Source: Candidatus Woesearchaeota archaeon (GTDB lineage Archaea > Nanobdellota > Nanobdellia > Woesearchaeales > UBA10216). Taken from it: 34,078 nt of DNA. Shown here one piece after another: positions 4,501 to 23,586 of the stretch. The DNA is taken from contig JACPBX010000008.1 of NCBI GenBank assembly GCA_016180085.1, positions 1-34,078 on the forward strand, read 5' to 3'. A program made the translations under genes and the position numbers. Numbering within the stretch: the first letter of the stretch is position 1; each line of letters opens with the position of its first letter. The notes under the pieces are model-generated. The model saw nothing but the letters and a program-made list of their open reading frames with translations, was not told the DNA's origin and did not search any database.

Positions 4501-4548
4501 TTCTGAACAGCAATGTTTAAATTGGCTTTGAGTTTCTTGTTTGTTTAC

Positions 4549-4619
4549 GCGGCAGTGGTCCACCGGCACGACTCGACCTTCCCAAGGTCGCAAAGCGGGT
4601 TCAATTCCCGCCTGCCGCA
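4549..4619 (+). tRNA. tRNA-Gly(CCC)
   Basis: Acceptor GCGGCAG/CTGCCGC plus discriminator A, D-stem GTC/GAC, anticodon stem CGACC/GGTCG with loop TTCCCAA, T-arm GCGGG-TTCAATT-CCCGC; no encoded CCA; TATA-like GTTTAAA at 4515-4521. Confidence 0.93.
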
Positions 4620-4623
4620 TTAC

Positions 4624-5139
4624 ATGACTATACGTTTGGCAACAGCGAAAGACATTCCCAAATTAGCCCTCCTTGAGAGGAAAGCTTACGGGAAGCAAGG
4701 ATATAGTGAGCAGTTTATTTTAGGGAAGCAAAGGCACTTTCCTGATGGCCTGATAATCTCCGAGCACGAAAATAAGATAACTGGCTACATTCTTTACGAT
4801 TCTCTGGGTGAGCATGAGATTTCCCCGGATTTTCGCATTGTCAGCTTGAAAGAGCCGATTGAAGGCAGATGGATGCATATTGTTGCATTTACAACTGAGA
4901 CAAACTACAAGGATTTTGAGCATGATGCCAATCTTCTTCGCACAGCGGAAAAATCGGCAATTCTCAACGGCTGTAAGTTTGCTTATGTCCCTCTGCCAAA
5001 AGAGCACACATTTGATAAGCATGGTGCGCACCAGTTTTGGGAGCGCAACGGCTACCGGAAAATTGGGAGCATTCAGTGGCTGCCTGAGTCAGGGAAGCCT
5101 GTTGAATGTTATTTCTACAAAAAACAGCTGACAGGTTAA
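4624..5139 (+). CDS. GNAT family N-acetyltransferase
   Basis: MTIRLATAKDIPKLALLE start and AHQFWERNGYRKIG C-terminal GNAT motif; the ORF-track N-terminal extension overlaps the tRNA. Confidence 0.75.
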   Translation: MTIRLATAKDIPKLALLERKAYGKQGYSEQFILGKQRHFPDGLIISEHENKITGYILYDSLGEHEISPDFRIVSLKEPIEGRWMHIVAFTTETNYKDFEHDANLLRTAEKSAILNGCKFAYVPLPKEHTFDKHGAHQFWERNGYRKIGSIQWLPESGKPVECYFYKKQLTG

Positions 5140-5170
5140 ATTTATATTGCATTGCCAATCGCAAGAACGT

Positions 5171-5842
5171 ATGAAGCTATCACCGACAGAATTTGACAGA
5201 AAGCTGCGTGAAGGCAGGCTCCGCCTTTCAGTTGTAGGCATGTCCAACGTTGGCAAGACTAGGCGGGCAAAGAGCCTCGTTGCCGACCAGAGCCTGAACT
5301 TTGTGTGGCTGCACGGCGATGACCTCGTTGAGGCAAAGCTGCAGCCTTACCTTGAAGGCAAAGGATTTAAGGGTGTCAACGGAGTTGCTGCATGGATGGG
5401 CCAGCCTTATGAAGCCCGCTATCCCGAAACCCAAAAGCTGTTTCTTCAGTTTGAGGAGTCAGCAATGGCTGAGATTGTCTTTTCCGTTGGCAAGAACATT
5501 GTCGTTGACACTACAGGGAGCGTTATTTACCTTCCACAGAATGTGCTGCAGCGGCTGAAGGAGAGCACCCTTATAGTTTACCTTGAAGCCACAGAGGATG
5601 TTAAAAAACTGCTTTTCGAGCGCTATATCTCCAATCCAAAGCCTGTTATCTGGGGTGGCAGCTTTAGCCGCAAACATGGTGAATCAGACCTTGACGCGCT
5701 TAGGCGCTGCTATCCGCAACTGCTGGAATACAGGGCTGTAAGATACAGGAAGCTTGCCGACATCACCATCCCGCATAATGTTCTTCGCGACACTTCCGGC
5801 AGGCAGTTCCTGAATGAGATTAAGAAGCGGCTTCCGCAGTAG
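5171..5842 (+). CDS. P-loop kinase of the shikimate/gluconate kinase-like fold
   Basis: Walker A GMSNVGKT, HGDDLVE, VVDTTGSVIY, IVYLEA, RAVRYRKLADITI. Confidence 0.7.
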   Translation: MKLSPTEFDRKLREGRLRLSVVGMSNVGKTRRAKSLVADQSLNFVWLHGDDLVEAKLQPYLEGKGFKGVNGVAAWMGQPYEARYPETQKLFLQFEESAMAEIVFSVGKNIVVDTTGSVIYLPQNVLQRLKESTLIVYLEATEDVKKLLFERYISNPKPVIWGGSFSRKHGESDLDALRRCYPQLLEYRAVRYRKLADITIPHNVLRDTSGRQFLNEIKKRLPQ

Positions 5843-5852
5843 TTTTCCGATT

Positions 5853-5903
5853 CCCAAGTCGCGTTTGACGCGACTGGGCCCAGTCGGCTGCTGCCGACTC
5901 GGG
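5853..5903. repeat. 51-nt double-hairpin element, intergenic copy
   Basis: CCC-A-AGTCGCG-TTTGA-CGCGACT-GGG joined to CCC-AGTCGGC-TGCT-GCCGACT-C-GGG; central perfect palindrome CGACTGGGCCCAGTCG at 5871-5886. Confidence 0.8.
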
Positions 5904-5966
5904 GACTGCTTTACCAAAGGGGTCACCCTAGTAAACTTTTTAATCCAGCCATTTTCCCACCGTTAC

Positions 5967-6707
5967 ATGCTGAACATTAGGGAAATTGTAATAAAAATAG
6001 CTGACATCCGTGCATATTCGGAAAACCTCAGGGTTTTCAGGCTCACGCTTCCTGAAGGCAGCGGCTTTTCATTTGTTCCCGGCCAGTTTGTGATGGTTTC
6101 GCTTCCAGGCTTTGCTGCCGCGAATGGCAGGAAAATAGCCAAGTCATACTCAATAGCATCCTCGCCTTCCGAGACGGGAATTCTGGAGCTTTGCATAGCC
6201 CTCTATCCCTCGGGCGCCCTCTCTCCGAAACTGTTCCAGAAAAATGTCGGTGATGAGGTTGTTGTGACAGGGCCTTACGGCGTATTTCAGCTCAAGCAGT
6301 CTATCCAGTCGGGAACTGTTTTTATGGCCGGGGGCACAGGTCTCGCCCCTTTGATGAGTATGCTTCGTTCGCTCTACGCAGGAGGCTACAACGAAAAGCT
6401 CTGGCTTTTTTACAGTGCCAGCGAGCCAAAGCTGTTTTTGTTCAAGGAAGAGCTTTTGGGCTATCAAAAAAACAACAATCTGCAGCTTATTGCTTCAACC
6501 AGCAGGCCGGACAATACCTGGGAATGGGAAAAGGGCAGGGTGACAGACACGTTCCCAAGCTTTCTGCATCAGTTGCAAGGCGATGGCGTCCCAAGCGAGT
6601 CAAGGCAGTTCTACATCTGCGGCCCTCCGCTGATGGTTTCTGACACGGTTAAGATGCTTGAGCAGATCGGCTTCAAAAAGGAGAACATCCACAAGGAGCA
6701 ATGGTAA
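5967..6707 (+). CDS. FAD/NAD(P)H-dependent ferredoxin-NADP+ reductase family oxidoreductase
   Basis: FVPGQFV, KSYSIASSP, GALSPKL, GPYG, AGGTGLAP and FYICGPPLM motifs. Confidence 0.9.
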   Translation: MLNIREIVIKIADIRAYSENLRVFRLTLPEGSGFSFVPGQFVMVSLPGFAAANGRKIAKSYSIASSPSETGILELCIALYPSGALSPKLFQKNVGDEVVVTGPYGVFQLKQSIQSGTVFMAGGTGLAPLMSMLRSLYAGGYNEKLWLFYSASEPKLFLFKEELLGYQKNNNLQLIASTSRPDNTWEWEKGRVTDTFPSFLHQLQGDGVPSESRQFYICGPPLMVSDTVKMLEQIGFKKENIHKEQW

Positions 6708-7355: not shown

Positions 7356-9740
7356 TCACTTTATGGAGTGCCCGCCGAACTGCTCCCTGAGCCCCGAGAG
7401 GACTTTTCCAGTGTAAGTTTTGCTGTTTTTCTCCGACCACTTCCTGAACTGCATGGCCCCCTCAATGATTTTTGCCTTGGCCTTGAGTTCCTTTGCTGTT
7501 TTGACTGTCCAGGCCCCTTCTCCCGTGTGGCCAACCTTGCCCGAAACTCCCTTTAGGTCTTCTCCGTGAAGCTCAAAAGCCGCCTTGAGCCAGCCGGCGA
7601 GCCTTGACTCTATGACGCTGCCGTGGTTGTAAATGTCCGCAACCCTTTTCAGGTCAAGCCTGTAACCTGACTTTTTCAGAATCTCAAAGCCTTCTGCCAG
7701 GGCCTGCATCATGCCGTACTCAATTCCGTTGTGCACCATCTTCACAAAGTGGCCTGCCCCTGCTCCCTGGAAGAACTGCACGCCGTTTGTGGCGGCGTAA
7801 TCAACTAGCAGGGGCAGCAGGTATTCATAGTCCTTTTTCTCACCGCCAACCATGAGGCATGCCCCTCGCCTTGAACCTCCCGGCCCTCCTGACACGCCAA
7901 CATCCGCAAACCTTATCCCTCTCCTGGTCAGCTCATTGTGCCTCCTTGCCGAGTCCTTGTAGTATGAGTTTCCGCCGTCAACTATTATGTCACCCTTCTG
8001 CAGACAGTGGACAAGGCCATTGTGCTCCATTGTACCGAATATCATTTCGTCTACCGGATTTCCTGCGGGCAGCATGAGCCAGATTATTCTTGGATGTTTT
8101 AGCTTGCCCACAAGTTCCTGCAGCGAGTAAGCTCCTTTAAGGCCGTGCTTTTCAAACTCCTTGGTTTTCTCTGCTGTCCTGTTGTAGGCCACAACCTTCC
8201 AGTCCTTTTCGTGCATCCTTAGCGCCATGTTGCCGCCCATCCTGCCAAGCCCGATTATGCCAAGTTCTTTGGCGAATCCCGGCCGCACAGACTCTTCTTC
8301 TATTCTTGCCGACATCCTTGAGGCGTAGTCAGTATCTGGCATGTACGTCCTCAGCGGCACAGCGTTATTCTTCCATGCATATACATAGGGGTCAATGAAT
8401 TTCCACATGGCATTTACTTCCTCACTGCTTATGAAGAGGGTCTGGTCTCCTACGATGCAATCCAGAAGGAGCCTTTCATACTCTTCAACGTACTGTACCC
8501 GGTTCTCTGCTTCCCTGTAAAGCATCTTCAAAGCTCTTTTGTCTATTTCTGACGTGAGGCCTGGCTTTTTGAGCCAGAAATGGACAGTTATGGCCTCCAC
8601 CGGCTCCAGGCTGAACACGACCTCACTGTGGTAGTGCTTGGCGGCTGTTGGCTGGCACAGGCATGGCGCCGGGTGCTTTAGCACAACAACTATCTCTTTC
8701 TTGGGCTCTCCCATTCTTTTGCCGCTTTCCATTATTATTGGGACGCCCTGCCACCTTTCATTGTCAATGTACGCCCTGATTTTGAAGTAGGTCTCAGTTT
8801 GCGATTCTGGCGCTACACCATTAATTTTCCTGTAGCCGTCGTACTGTGCCCTGAAGGAGTTGTTCCTGATTTCCTCCTCAGCCGGTATTTTCAGTGCCTT
8901 CAGCACCCTTGCCCTTTGCGTCCTTATGGCGTTCGGCTCCAGCTTAACAGGATGGTCCATGGCAGCAAGCGCAAGCATCTGCAGCAGGTGGTTCTGGCCT
9001 ACATCCCTGAGGCAGCCTATGCTGTCGTAAAAGCTTCCTCTGTCATCAACGCCCAGCTCCTCAAACACCCTGATATGTATTCGCTCTATGAACTGGTTGT
9101 TCCAGCTCTGCTCGAAAAGGCTGTTGGAGAACCTGAAAGAGAGTATGTTTTGCAGCATGTCCTTGCCCAGGTAGTGGTCTATCCTGTAGATTTGCTCTTC
9201 CTTGAACAGCTTGCCCAGCAGTAGGTCCAGTTCTTCAGCTGTCTTGAGGTCCTTGCCAAAGGGCTTCTCAACCATTACCCGTGTCCAGCCCTCTTCCGGC
9301 CCGCATCCTTTTGTCAGGCCTGAGGCTGCCAGGTTATTGAATATGTTCTTGTAGAACTCCGGGGCAACTGCAAGGTAGAACAGCTTGTTGGTGCACACTC
9401 CCCACTGCGAATCTATCTGCCCAATTTTCTTAGCCAGGCTCTTGTATGTGGTTTTTTTGTCAAAAAGCCCCTTGTGGTAGGAGAAGAGCTGCAGGAAAGG
9501 CTTCAGCTCAGGGTCGGCCTTTGTTGTGTCCTTGTGCTGGCTGAGGAATTCCGCAACCATTCTCCTGAAGTCTTTGTCAGAGTAGTCACGCCTGGAAACC
9601 CCCACTACCCTGAACATCCTTGGCAGCATGCGCTTCTTGTGGAGGTGGAACAGGGCAGGCACTATTTTCCTGGCCATCAAGTCGCCTGTTGCGCCGAATA
9701 TTACTACTGTTGACGGAATGTTCTGTTTCGGGCTGAGCAT
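7356..9740 (-). CDS. zwf-gnd: Fused glucose-6-phosphate dehydrogenase / decarboxylating 6-phosphogluconate dehydrogenase (short type)
   Basis: N-terminal GATGDL, EKPFG, RIDHYLGKD, RDVGQNH; C-terminal GIIGLGRMG, DGGNS, GVSGG, KMVHNGIEYG; one uninterrupted 794-aa ORF. Confidence 0.93.
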   Translation of the reverse strand: MLSPKQNIPSTVVIFGATGDLMARKIVPALFHLHKKRMLPRMFRVVGVSRRDYSDKDFRRMVAEFLSQHKDTTKADPELKPFLQLFSYHKGLFDKKTTYKSLAKKIGQIDSQWGVCTNKLFYLAVAPEFYKNIFNNLAASGLTKGCGPEEGWTRVMVEKPFGKDLKTAEELDLLLGKLFKEEQIYRIDHYLGKDMLQNILSFRFSNSLFEQSWNNQFIERIHIRVFEELGVDDRGSFYDSIGCLRDVGQNHLLQMLALAAMDHPVKLEPNAIRTQRARVLKALKIPAEEEIRNNSFRAQYDGYRKINGVAPESQTETYFKIRAYIDNERWQGVPIIMESGKRMGEPKKEIVVVLKHPAPCLCQPTAAKHYHSEVVFSLEPVEAITVHFWLKKPGLTSEIDKRALKMLYREAENRVQYVEEYERLLLDCIVGDQTLFISSEEVNAMWKFIDPYVYAWKNNAVPLRTYMPDTDYASRMSARIEEESVRPGFAKELGIIGLGRMGGNMALRMHEKDWKVVAYNRTAEKTKEFEKHGLKGAYSLQELVGKLKHPRIIWLMLPAGNPVDEMIFGTMEHNGLVHCLQKGDIIVDGGNSYYKDSARRHNELTRRGIRFADVGVSGGPGGSRRGACLMVGGEKKDYEYLLPLLVDYAATNGVQFFQGAGAGHFVKMVHNGIEYGMMQALAEGFEILKKSGYRLDLKRVADIYNHGSVIESRLAGWLKAAFELHGEDLKGVSGKVGHTGEGAWTVKTAKELKAKAKIIEGAMQFRKWSEKNSKTYTGKVLSGLREQFGGHSIK

Positions 9741-22269: not shown

Positions 22270-23586
22270 TCACAGCCTATTATCGCTTTTTGCCCATGAT
22301 TCAGCGGTTTGGGCTGGCTTTTTTAGCTTTGCGGCTATTTTCCCAAGTGCCTCAGCGAACTTTTCTATTTCTTGTGTGGTGTTGTAGAGGTAAAAGCTTG
22401 CCCTTGTTGAGCCTGCTGTGCCCAGAAGCCTGGCAAGCGGCATGGCGCAGTGGTGGCCTCCCCTGACAGCTATTCCCGCAGCATCCAGGAATGCTGATAC
22501 ATCGTGCGGGTGGGCTCCGTTAAGGTTGAATGCAACCAAGCCACTTCTCTTGGCAGCATCCTTTGGCCCGTATACGGCAACACCCTCTATTTCCTGCAGC
22601 CTTTTTAGCGCCAATTTTGTAAGCAGTATCTCATGCTCCCAAACGTTTTCCATCCCAACCTTCTGCAAATAGTCAACAGCTGCCGTCAGCCCGACGGCTC
22701 CGGCCATGTTTGGAGTTCCTGCCTCAAACTTCCAGGGCAGCTCGTTCCACTTTGCGCCTTCTAAGCTTACCTCGCTTATCATGTCCCCTCCGTAAAGGAA
22801 AGGTTCCATTCCCTCAAGCAGCTCCCTTTTGCCGTAAAGCACCCCTACGCCTGTTGGCCCGAGCATTTTATGCGCTGAGAATGCCAGGAAGTCGCAGCCA
22901 AGCTCTTTCACGTTCACCGGCATGTGTGGCACTGACTGCGCGGCATCGACAACAGTTACAGCTCCAATTTCCTTCGCTGCAGCAATGATTTCCTTGGCTG
23001 GATTTATTGTTCCCAGAACATTTGAAACGTGCGTGAATGCAACTATTTTCGTTTTCTTCCCTATTGTTTGCCGCAGCTGCAAATCGGACGATGTCCGATT
23101 GCACATTCCGCTTGTGGCGGAATTGTGCTGTAGCTTTAATTCGCCGTTGCCGTCTATTTCCAAAAACCTGAGCTTTGCCCCTGTCCTTTTCGCTGCCTGC
23201 TGCCACGGGACAATATTGCTGTGGTGCTCCATCTGCGTCAATACTATCTCGTCACCTTTCTGCAGCTGCTGTGACAAAGAGCTTGCAACAAGGTTGATTG
23301 ATTCTGTGGTGTTCTTTGTGAAAACAACCTCCTCCATACACTCAGCGCCGATGAAACCGGCAACCTTTTCATGGGCTTCGTCATACGCTGCAGTAGCTTC
23401 CTGGCTCAGCCTGTGCACTGCCCTGTGCACGTTTGAGTTGTAGGTTTCATAATAATCATTCGTTGCCTGTATTACCTGCCTCGGCTTTTGCGTTGTTGCA
23501 GCGTTGTCAAGGTAAACCAGCGGCTTCCCGTAAACCTTCCTTTTCAATATAGGGAAGTCCTCTCTTATCCTTTCAGCGTTAAGCAT
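22270..23586 (-). CDS. sufS: Cysteine desulfurase SufS (with a ~17-aa insertion)
   Basis: YLDNAATTQKP, MEHHSN, DAAQS, SAHKMLGP, FEAGTPN, RGGHHCA, RASFYLYN. Confidence 0.96.
   Translation of the reverse strand: MLNAERIREDFPILKRKVYGKPLVYLDNAATTQKPRQVIQATNDYYETYNSNVHRAVHRLSQEATAAYDEAHEKVAGFIGAECMEEVVFTKNTTESINLVASSLSQQLQKGDEIVLTQMEHHSNIVPWQQAAKRTGAKLRFLEIDGNGELKLQHNSATSGMCNRTSSDLQLRQTIGKKTKIVAFTHVSNVLGTINPAKEIIAAAKEIGAVTVVDAAQSVPHMPVNVKELGCDFLAFSAHKMLGPTGVGVLYGKRELLEGMEPFLYGGDMISEVSLEGAKWNELPWKFEAGTPNMAGAVGLTAAVDYLQKVGMENVWEHEILLTKLALKRLQEIEGVAVYGPKDAAKRSGLVAFNLNGAHPHDVSAFLDAAGIAVRGGHHCAMPLARLLGTAGSTRASFYLYNTTQEIEKFAEALGKIAAKLKKPAQTAESWAKSDNRL
23078..23128. repeat. 51-nt double-hairpin element inserted in frame in sufS
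   Basis: TGC-A-AATCGGAC-GAT-GTCCGATT-GCA and GCAC-ATTCCGC-TTGTG-GCGGAAT-T-GTGC; GCTG direct repeat 51 nt apart (23076-23079, 23127-23130). Confidence 0.78.

Follow-up and report, generated by a model that had tools for sequence, protein, structure and literature searches.

The 34,078-nt stretch of DNA analysed here (the window) is contig C39 of a groundwater Woesearchaeota MAG, G000 (998,598 bp, 45 contigs, 83% complete). Its SufS homologues place the genome in Candidatus Woesearchaeota (DPANN archaea), and a search for SSU rRNA shows that the assembly contains no rRNA. A kinase-like gene and a gene for a ferredoxin-NADP reductase-like (FNR-like) flavoprotein are separated by a spacer that contains a double-hairpin (DH) element, and a second DH lies in frame within the sufS gene of the same window (Table 1). 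The spacer copy extends from the CCC triplet at 5853-5855 to the GGG triplet at 5901-5903. It begins 10 nt 3' of the kinase-like stop codon (TAG, 5840-5842), which is followed by TTTT at 5843-5846, and ends 28 nt 5' of a promoter-like box. A TAAACTTTTTAAT-like box is kept in all eight aligned orthologous spacers, with or without a DH, and we infer from its sequence that it would act as the promoter of the FNR-like gene.

Table 1. Coordinates of the features discussed in the window
Feature	Position	Strand	Description	Basis
DH element, spacer copy	5853-5903	.	51 nt, CCCAA...CGGG	Sequence, RNA and DNA folds, covariance model
Hairpin 1	5853-5878		CCC clamp, AGTCGCG(T) stem, loop, (A)CGCGACT, GGG clamp	Folds, RNAalifold
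Hairpin 2	5879-5903		CCC clamp, AGTCGGC stem, loop TGCT, GCCGACT, GGG clamp	Folds, RNAalifold
Central perfect 16-bp palindrome	5871-5886		CGACTGGGCCCAGTCG; junction of the two hairpin feet	Sequence
Upstream kinase-like gene	5147-5842	+	231 aa	Weak P-loop kinase similarity, below cut-offs
Downstream FNR-like gene	5967-6707	+	FNR-like flavoprotein	FAD_binding_6 and NAD_binding_1
TATA/BRE-like box	5932-5944	+	TAAACTTTTTAAT, 23 nt 5' of the FNR-like ATG	
Degenerate T/A-rich "host" hairpin remnant	5904-5927; other side 5843-5852		GACTGCTTTaccAAAGGGGTCAC; other side TTTTCCGATT	
DH element, sufS copy	23080-23127	-	CACA/TGCA subfamily; in-frame 48-nt insertion encoding HNSATSGMCNRTSSDL	
sufS gene	22270-23586	-		

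The extent and coordinates of the spacer copy, its clamp and stem layout and its perfect central palindrome are as read from the sequence in the initial annotation. The flanking tetranucleotides reported with them, GATT (5849-5852) and GACT (5904-5907), are present at this copy but are not a feature of the family, and the 51-nt length thought to be shared with the sufS copy applies to the spacer copy, the sufS copy being a 48-nt insertion (50-51 nt clamp to clamp). In the predicted fold, two extended hairpins lie side by side. Hairpin 1 has one extra A (5856/5857) on its 5' side; in hairpin 2 the single additional nucleotide, C5900, is on the 3' side and is replaced by T in most copies of the family. 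The RNA fold has an energy of -35.2 kcal/mol (z -4.69), which none of 200 shuffles equals, and the DNA fold reaches -22.4 kcal/mol (z -6.00 against shuffles). The covariance model of the family, R1, matches the spacer copy with 63.2 bits on the forward and 59.0 bits on the reverse strand (E~1e-12). The DH appears to be embedded in the remnant of a T/A-rich host hairpin, which was judged by eye against the sites C29:612, C36:48593, C35:18755 and C5:2304.

A scan of the whole G000 assembly for adjacent perfect hairpins reveals dozens of elements with the same grammar, and R1 matches about 28 loci, each on both strands at similar score. A strict regular-expression grammar finds 15 elements in G000 and none in each of 20 shuffled genomes; it supersedes a looser grammar that tolerated a stem mismatch and let the stem extension absorb the clamps (16 real elements against 7-12 in shuffles). 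The proposal of a family of tiny elements, which was first made from two copies, is thereby extended to about 28 loci. Counts of CCCAGTCG and similar words show no enrichment in G000, which indicates that the family is defined by its structure.

The alignment of 19 copies has the consensus nCCCAAGTCG-var-loop-var'-CGACTGGGCCCAGTCG-var-loop-var'-CGACTTGGGn, for which RNAalifold predicts two helices of 10 pairs each; 12 of these 20 pairs are changed on both sides. On the predicted structure 97.6% of 378 alignment cells are paired, a percentage inflated by the use of a perfect-stem scan to pick the alignment seeds, and pairing falls to 27-42% when the partner columns are slid by 1-3 positions. 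Double-sided changes are found in 57 cells, compared with 15.2 +/- 3.4 in shuffles (0/500), which bears out the earlier view that structure is conserved while the primary sequence diverges. The compensation is almost purely Watson-Crick, with G-U pairs in 3 of the 378 cells. The feet are conserved (CCC-A-ARTCG ... CGAYT-GGG in the first hairpin and CCC-ARTCG ... CGAYT-T-GGG in the second), and the tops vary freely but remain complementary.

The clamps had been supposed to close the element as a whole. The clamp triplets lie outside the perfect-stem selection of the seeds, so their covariation is not inflated by it. Among 91 elements gathered without a clamp condition, 13 are non-canonical (for example, CAC/GTG with CCC/GGG, or CCC/GGG with CGC/GCG), and these show 5 mismatches when the triplets pair within their own hairpin, as opposed to 19 under an outer-clamp model. 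The outer-clamp fold with a three-way junction is therefore ruled out; each CCC/GGG triplet pairs inside its own hairpin, and the DH consists of two independent bulged hairpins, foot to foot. All 108 inner junctions in 1.5 Mb of DNA from G000 and its relatives read GAYTGGGCCCARTC and lack an additional base. The extra A and T are confined to the outer sides, and the dimer architecture is invariant. Circle-junction or tandem signatures (GAYTTGGGCCCAARTC), outer-outer junctions and excision products are absent from the same 1.5 Mb. The element is two-fold pseudo-symmetric as a whole, which explains why both strands fold alike.

A third DH subfamily pairs GCATCGGC...GCCGATGC with a second variable hairpin. 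It is found in G000 at C22:39469, C22:115811, C22:144516, C18:10144, C15:40602, C33:3227 and C41:1477-1545, and outside G000 at L103:3412-3504; it forms arrays of up to three hairpins and also occurs in the loop of a CCCA-type element. A solo hairpin in G000, CACATTCCGCTTGTGGCGGAATTGTG (C41:23649-23674), is identical to one hairpin of the sufS element, loop included, and from this sequence match may possibly be a half-element.

The loci were compared with their orthologues in other species of the genus (genomes designated by G numbers). In the kinase-FNR spacer, the DH is present in G000 and, half decayed, in the closest relative, G005 (82% identity), and six of the eight aligned spacers (G001, G002, G004, G007, G008 and G009; 35-77 nt) are without it. 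A stretch of 14 nt that separates two GTCG repeats is missing from the G005 copy; the top of its hairpin 1 reads GAC, compared with GCG in G000, the 3' arm of that hairpin is lost, and the loop of hairpin 2 differs at all four bases. Because the DH is missing from six orthologous spacers, the window copy is not a conserved terminator. The alternative that it is a terminator or a known structured RNA is refuted by these empty spacers together with the lack of any Rfam match at E<=10 and of a hairpin-plus-T-run at the window copy. Its entry into the spacer, just past the stop codon and ahead of the box of the FNR-like gene, dates to the ancestor that G000 shares with G005.

The 16-residue insert in SufS is found in 2 of 14 aligned proteins. 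At the DNA level, G000 and G007 carry the 48-nt block, and eight genus members have the empty site, AAAGCTGCA^GCAGCTG, at which a 3-nt GCA repeat is ambiguous. In the gene with an intein, a 51-nt block, CCCAAG...CTTGGG, is found in G000 only, with the flanks TTCAAAA^GGGCAAG. A further 51-nt block, again in G000 only, lies in the inter-domain linker of a GT4 glycosyltransferase, between CTGCAGAA and AAATTATG (CTGCAGAA^AAATTATG), with no duplication. G001, G004 and G008 have no insertion in a spacer between convergent genes, which has been filled independently, with nesting, in three other species. In G000, a DH occupies the 3' arm of a T/A-rich hairpin; in G005, the 5' arm of the same hairpin holds a DH into which a further DH has inserted; and G007 has a DH with a nested DH in each of its two hairpins. 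The nesting is confirmed by the covariance model and DNA folds, and a further nested case is found at C15:37765-37854 of G000. Copies that are 94-95% identical, variable parts included, occur at unrelated loci of other species. Filled and empty orthologous sites, of which three insertions are fully clean, agree with the idea that these are mobile elements.

Several other features were observed at these genes. The sufS insert (23080-23127) and its counterpart in G007 (C1:194613-194660) are 100% identical over 48 nt, with ~79% identity in the flanking sufS DNA, and at sufS G007 is closer to G000 than G005 is, the opposite of what is seen at four other loci; this suggests interspecies allele exchange or strong nucleotide-level constraint on the element. 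P0055, the SufS homologue of another Woesearchaeote, has a different 30-residue insertion, RTTHQKRVVLEHAQNSTIPSTKSEWNPDMK, at another position (alignment columns 390-419), which, judged by its sequence, is possibly another in-frame hairpin element. The intein gene (C29:42108-43961 in G000) contains a LAGLIDADG homing-endonuclease domain, and it is the intein itself that hosts the DH insertion.

The insertion rules were derived from 88 distinct CCCA-type copies from G000 and the fetched relatives. The copies are 46-52 nt in length, with 48 and 51 nt seen 28 times each. The insertions are exact: the CCCAA...TTGGG boundaries are identical at unrelated sites, and no flanks are copied. At two of the three clean sites there is neither target duplication nor microhomology, and the third is the ambiguous GCA repeat of sufS. 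In light of this absence of duplication, and of termini that are complementary over only 5 nt (CCCAA/TTGGG), the terminal inverted repeats with target-site duplication that mark a classical MITE, derived from a DDE transposase, are not found. For 91% of the 88 copies, five or more of the six nucleotides around the insertion point (-4 to +2) are purines on one strand, compared with a genomic background of 28%, although this statistic is inflated by the many copies that share the host hairpin AAAAA^GGTCA. The consensus target is RRAA^RR, and the commonest context, AAAAA^GGTCA, is the 3' arm of the T/A hairpin. When oriented by the purine strand, the copies place the AATC foot first and the AGTC foot second in 43 cases and the reverse in 7 (p=2e-7), target and orientation counts alike being non-independent owing to related genomes and shared host hairpins. 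The polypurine sites and this bias indicate that insertion is target-biased and orientation-specific. The window copy itself lies outside any clear purine run, and the CACA/TGCA (sufS-type) subfamily shows another flank preference: five of the eight copies listed are followed on the 3' side by GCTGC or ACTGC. GC skew tracks gene direction in these contigs.

The commonest host of the DH is a second palindromic repeat family, which is T/A-rich and has the form TTTTTGAT(T/A)RACCTTTTT-N3-4-AAAAAGGTYAATCAAAAAAC. This repeat often abuts the 5' or 3' ends of tRNA genes. It is found upstream of tRNA-Arg (C10:1930) and tRNA-Gly (C29:50539), downstream of tRNA-Val (C9:274) and tRNA-Pro (C23:33631), at about position 860 of C26, and, in degenerate form, in the window (5843-5852 and 5904-5927). 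On both strands it might also serve as a TATA-like promoter and as an oligo-T terminator.

R1 matches are found in all nine other species of the genus, with at least 13-96 strand-hits per genome, in 5 of 15 genomes from other genera of the family and in 1 of 35 that represent other families of the order. When one genome for each of 185,579 species was scanned for the exact pattern, 76 stretches were returned, all from about 10 groundwater Woesearchaeota-type MAGs, and the same scan of a viral collection returned no match. The distribution is lineage-restricted, with variable copy number. Full-text searches of the literature yielded no description of such elements in Woesearchaeota or DPANN archaea; a MITE census that places one Woesearchaeal genome among those with the highest MITE densities mentions this only as a remark (PMC11602168). 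The results support the view that the DH represents a real family of tiny insertion elements, apparently undescribed so far, whose members have structure in common more than sequence.

According to crude gene calls, about 6-8 of 29 copies lie inside long genes in a genome that is approximately 90% coding; most copies are intergenic, and they run in either direction relative to genes. The host genes encode SufS, the intein, the GT4 linker, a pyridine-nucleotide disulphide oxidoreductase and the N-terminal extension of a translational GTPase. All intragenic copies are 48 or 51 nt long, stop-free and in frame, and three sufS-type copies in genes share the peptide pattern HNSAxSGMCNRxSxDL, which fits read-through better than splicing. 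Lengths in multiples of three make a weak argument for translation, since 56 of the 88 copies measure 48 or 51 nt, the two most frequent lengths overall. Two further copies lie within long tRNA introns (C29:50539-50706 and C7:2341-2522), and others abut tRNA genes. Both are glycine-type tRNA genes with introns of 96 and 110 nt as predicted by ARAGORN, each of which contains a small hairpin and a complete DH; the ARAGORN anticodon call of Ser-TGA for C7:2341-2522 looks doubtful.

The copies in tRNA introns could be taken to mean that the DH spreads through RNA, leaving a transcript by excision and returning to the DNA by reverse splicing and reverse transcription, and exact, oriented insertion without duplication is also what retrohoming produces. 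However, the DH has no bulge-helix-bulge geometry, in which a 4-bp helix lies between two 3-nt bulges at the exon-intron junctions: its bulges are single-base and its stems 10-12 bp long. A reverse transcriptase (PF00078) is present in only 3 of the 10 genus genomes, which are not the copy-rich ones, G-U pairs are almost absent, the two strands are equivalent, and the in-frame, stop-free and peptide-conserved intragenic copies are unlikely to be spliced out. We regard spread through RNA as distinctly improbable. The Watson-Crick-only compensation, the likeness of the two strands and the presence of copies in either gene direction point to a DNA-level pairing or copy-correcting process.

Strong structural conservation with covariation is also what would be expected of a cis-acting signal, such as a terminator, a 3'-end stabiliser, a protein-binding site or a small RNA, in which case the window copy would regulate the kinase-like and FNR-like genes. 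By crude gene calls, many intergenic copies lie 7-33 nt past a stop codon, the window copy among them, and the complete identity of the sufS copy in two species with diverged flanks fits the same reading. Against it, the DH is missing from most of the orthologous spacers and half-deleted in G005, no T-run follows the hairpins and no promoter motif precedes the window copy, and no single cis-function fits copies that sit in coding regions, inteins, tRNA introns and each other. A cis-acting role is accordingly very improbable, and any regulatory effect is more likely a by-product. The window copy probably has no dedicated function of its own, and an effect on the 3' end of the upstream transcript is possible but finds no support here.

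It is fairly probable, in our assessment, that the window copy belongs to a non-autonomous, structure-defined family of mobile DNA in one Woesearchaeota lineage and that the family is moved as DNA. An enzyme acting in trans would probably recognise the folded hairpin feet, most likely in single-stranded or extruded DNA, and would join the DH next to a short purine motif, as in IS200/IS605 and REP/REPIN elements. IS200/IS605-derived and REP/REPIN elements carry bulged hairpins and are moved by Y1 HUH enzymes (TnpA and RAYT, respectively), and such an enzyme was the one put forward in the initial annotation. A profile search of G000 for the Y1 HUH transposase (PF01797) gives no match. PF01797 occurs in 2 of the 9 other genus genomes and in 7 of the 25 genomes searched across the family, and its presence does not correlate with that of the DH: G001, G007 and G008 contain many DH copies and no Y1 gene, and G011, G020 and G021 contain a Y1 gene and no copies. 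None of the hairpins that lie up to 1.2 kb from four Y1 genes of relatives has ARTCG-type feet. Mobilisation by an HUH (TnpA/RAYT) enzyme is thus not supported, since PF01797 is absent from G000 and uncorrelated in the relatives and the IS200/IS605 hairpins are dissimilar.

Other candidates for the mobilising enzyme fare no better. TnpB (PF07282), which is present in 2 of the 10 genus genomes, does not track the DH, nor does the reverse transcriptase, and G000 contains no dispersed multi-copy gene family of the IS type. A search of 1.5 Mb for an autonomous parent (a solo left hairpin, 60-4000 nt and a solo right hairpin) gave one match, which consists of two separate elements. Such absences are weak evidence, as the genomes are MAGs.

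The lack of a transposase-like partner is also consistent with spread that needs no dedicated enzyme, through recombination or replication errors such as gene conversion between copies, hairpin-induced template switching and the fusion or reassortment of hairpin modules. The modules are freely recombined, since 86 copies combine about 23 x 22 stem types in 58 different ways, and loops turn over, as they differ even among copies with the same stem and between the orthologues of G000 and G005; the deletion between GTCG repeats in G005 fits the same reading. Yeast GC42 elements likewise merge, shuffle and turn over their loops (PMC4478555). However, enzyme-free spread does not readily account for identical, exact boundaries with no copied flanks, for the lack of microhomology at two of the three clean sites, for the orientation bias relative to the purine target, or for the invariant dimer. 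Exact boundaries, orientation bias and a rigid dimer indicate a specific catalysed reaction, and we consider enzyme-free spread unlikely. Within the preferred reading of a DNA family moved in trans, a new kind of transposition is raised as a tentative possibility: a structure-specific enzyme that is not of the HUH, DDE, TnpB or RT type, encoded by the host or by an unassembled element, would use the bulged feet for oriented insertion at purine tracts without duplication.

A comparison with known systems reveals different partial likenesses. The DH shares with IS200/IS605 and REP/REPIN elements a small size, a non-autonomous nature, imperfect hairpins and a probable recognition by structure, as well as the adjoining short motif, the fixed orientation and the lack of target duplication; like REP/REPIN elements, the copies accumulate in intergenic DNA near gene ends, where REP elements are often paired and inverted (REPIN). 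The insertion behaviour (no duplication, the RRAA^RR target and the 43:7 orientation) is of the IS200/IS605 type. REP elements that are associated with RAYT have a conserved GTAG-like tetranucleotide 5' of the palindrome, whereas the DH consensus, CCCAARTCG..., has no tetranucleotide of the GTAG type. The hairpins of the DH are at its very termini, which leaves no room for the guide and cleavage sequences of IS200/IS605. In addition, the DH has no Y1 partner, is unrelated to the IS200/IS605 ends of its relatives, is much smaller (48-52 nt) and two-fold symmetric, and is archaeal. In its insertion behaviour the DH therefore most resembles IS200/IS605 and REP/REPIN elements, and membership fails on the enzyme and the ends. 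The attC sites of integrons are recombined as folded single-stranded DNA whose foot is conserved, whose top varies and which has extrahelical bases, and they are inserted in one orientation without duplication; the likeness to the DH is one of analogy only. Neither an integrase of the IntI type nor a cassette array was encountered, and the DH carries no cargo.

The evolutionary dynamics of the DH, by analogy, most resemble those of mitochondrial GC clusters, which are likewise 40-50 nt hairpins or double hairpins that occur sporadically at homologous sites and occasionally in frame, and which show loop-biased substitutions, merging, nesting and module shuffling. Examples are the in-frame 48-nt GC cluster in yeast var1/rps3 and the double-hairpin elements of Allomyces (PMC4478555 and papers cited there), and spread through errors of recombination or replication has been proposed for mitochondrial palindromic GC clusters and double-hairpin elements. 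For these clusters, too, the mobilising mechanism and enzyme are not established (PMC4478555). The clusters differ from the DH in that they are organellar and without sequence similarity to it, and yeast GC42 is flanked by AG/ACT repeats that resemble target duplications (PMC4478555), whereas the DH has no flanking direct repeats, keeps strictly to its dimer architecture and inserts at purine tracts in a specific orientation. The comparison with fungal mitochondrial double-hairpin elements made at the outset is therefore apt for behaviour (nesting, shuffling and loop turnover) but does not extend to membership, the DH being on an archaeal chromosome and without flanking repeats.

Rickettsia palindromic elements are ~100-150 bp long, lie in frame within housekeeping genes of a reduced genome and encode a family-specific peptide (PMC10969869). 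The sharing of one peptide by DH copies in three genes is similar, in that in-frame insertion adds a peptide. Size, host (bacterial) and sequence differ, and the DH is mostly intergenic; the relationship is one of analogy and not homology.

Bacteria and organelles are known to contain small palindromic repeats (REP/REPIN, RPE and mitochondrial GC clusters); no described counterpart was found for DPANN archaea. The rules of the DH are unusually clear: a fixed dimer, Watson-Crick-compensated stems, exact, oriented and duplication-free insertion, a purine target and self-nesting. Since the family occurs in genomes of approximately 1 Mb without a recognisable transposase, the question of what moves it is concretely testable. 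If the tentative proposal of an unknown kind of transposition were true, the DH would be among the smallest mobile DNAs known and would mark a new archaeal mobilisation system. The DH adds 16-17 residues to essential proteins (SufS, the translational GTPase and the glycosyltransferase), lengthens tRNA introns and fills intergenic DNA. Because it sits in proteins, tRNA introns and spacers, it may be mistaken in annotation for RNA genes, terminators or introns.

Two other observations concern the window itself. A 208-residue ORF (4513-5139, forward strand) without a family match overlaps tRNA-Gly(CCC) (4549-4619) on the same strand, and because of this overlap at least its 5' part is probably not coding. 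On the reverse strand, a 794-residue ORF (7356-9740) consists of G6PD_N and G6PD_C (glucose-6-phosphate dehydrogenase) joined to the NAD-binding and C-terminal domains of 6-phosphogluconate dehydrogenase. In this DPANN archaeon, two enzymes of the oxidative pentose-phosphate pathway form an unusual fusion.
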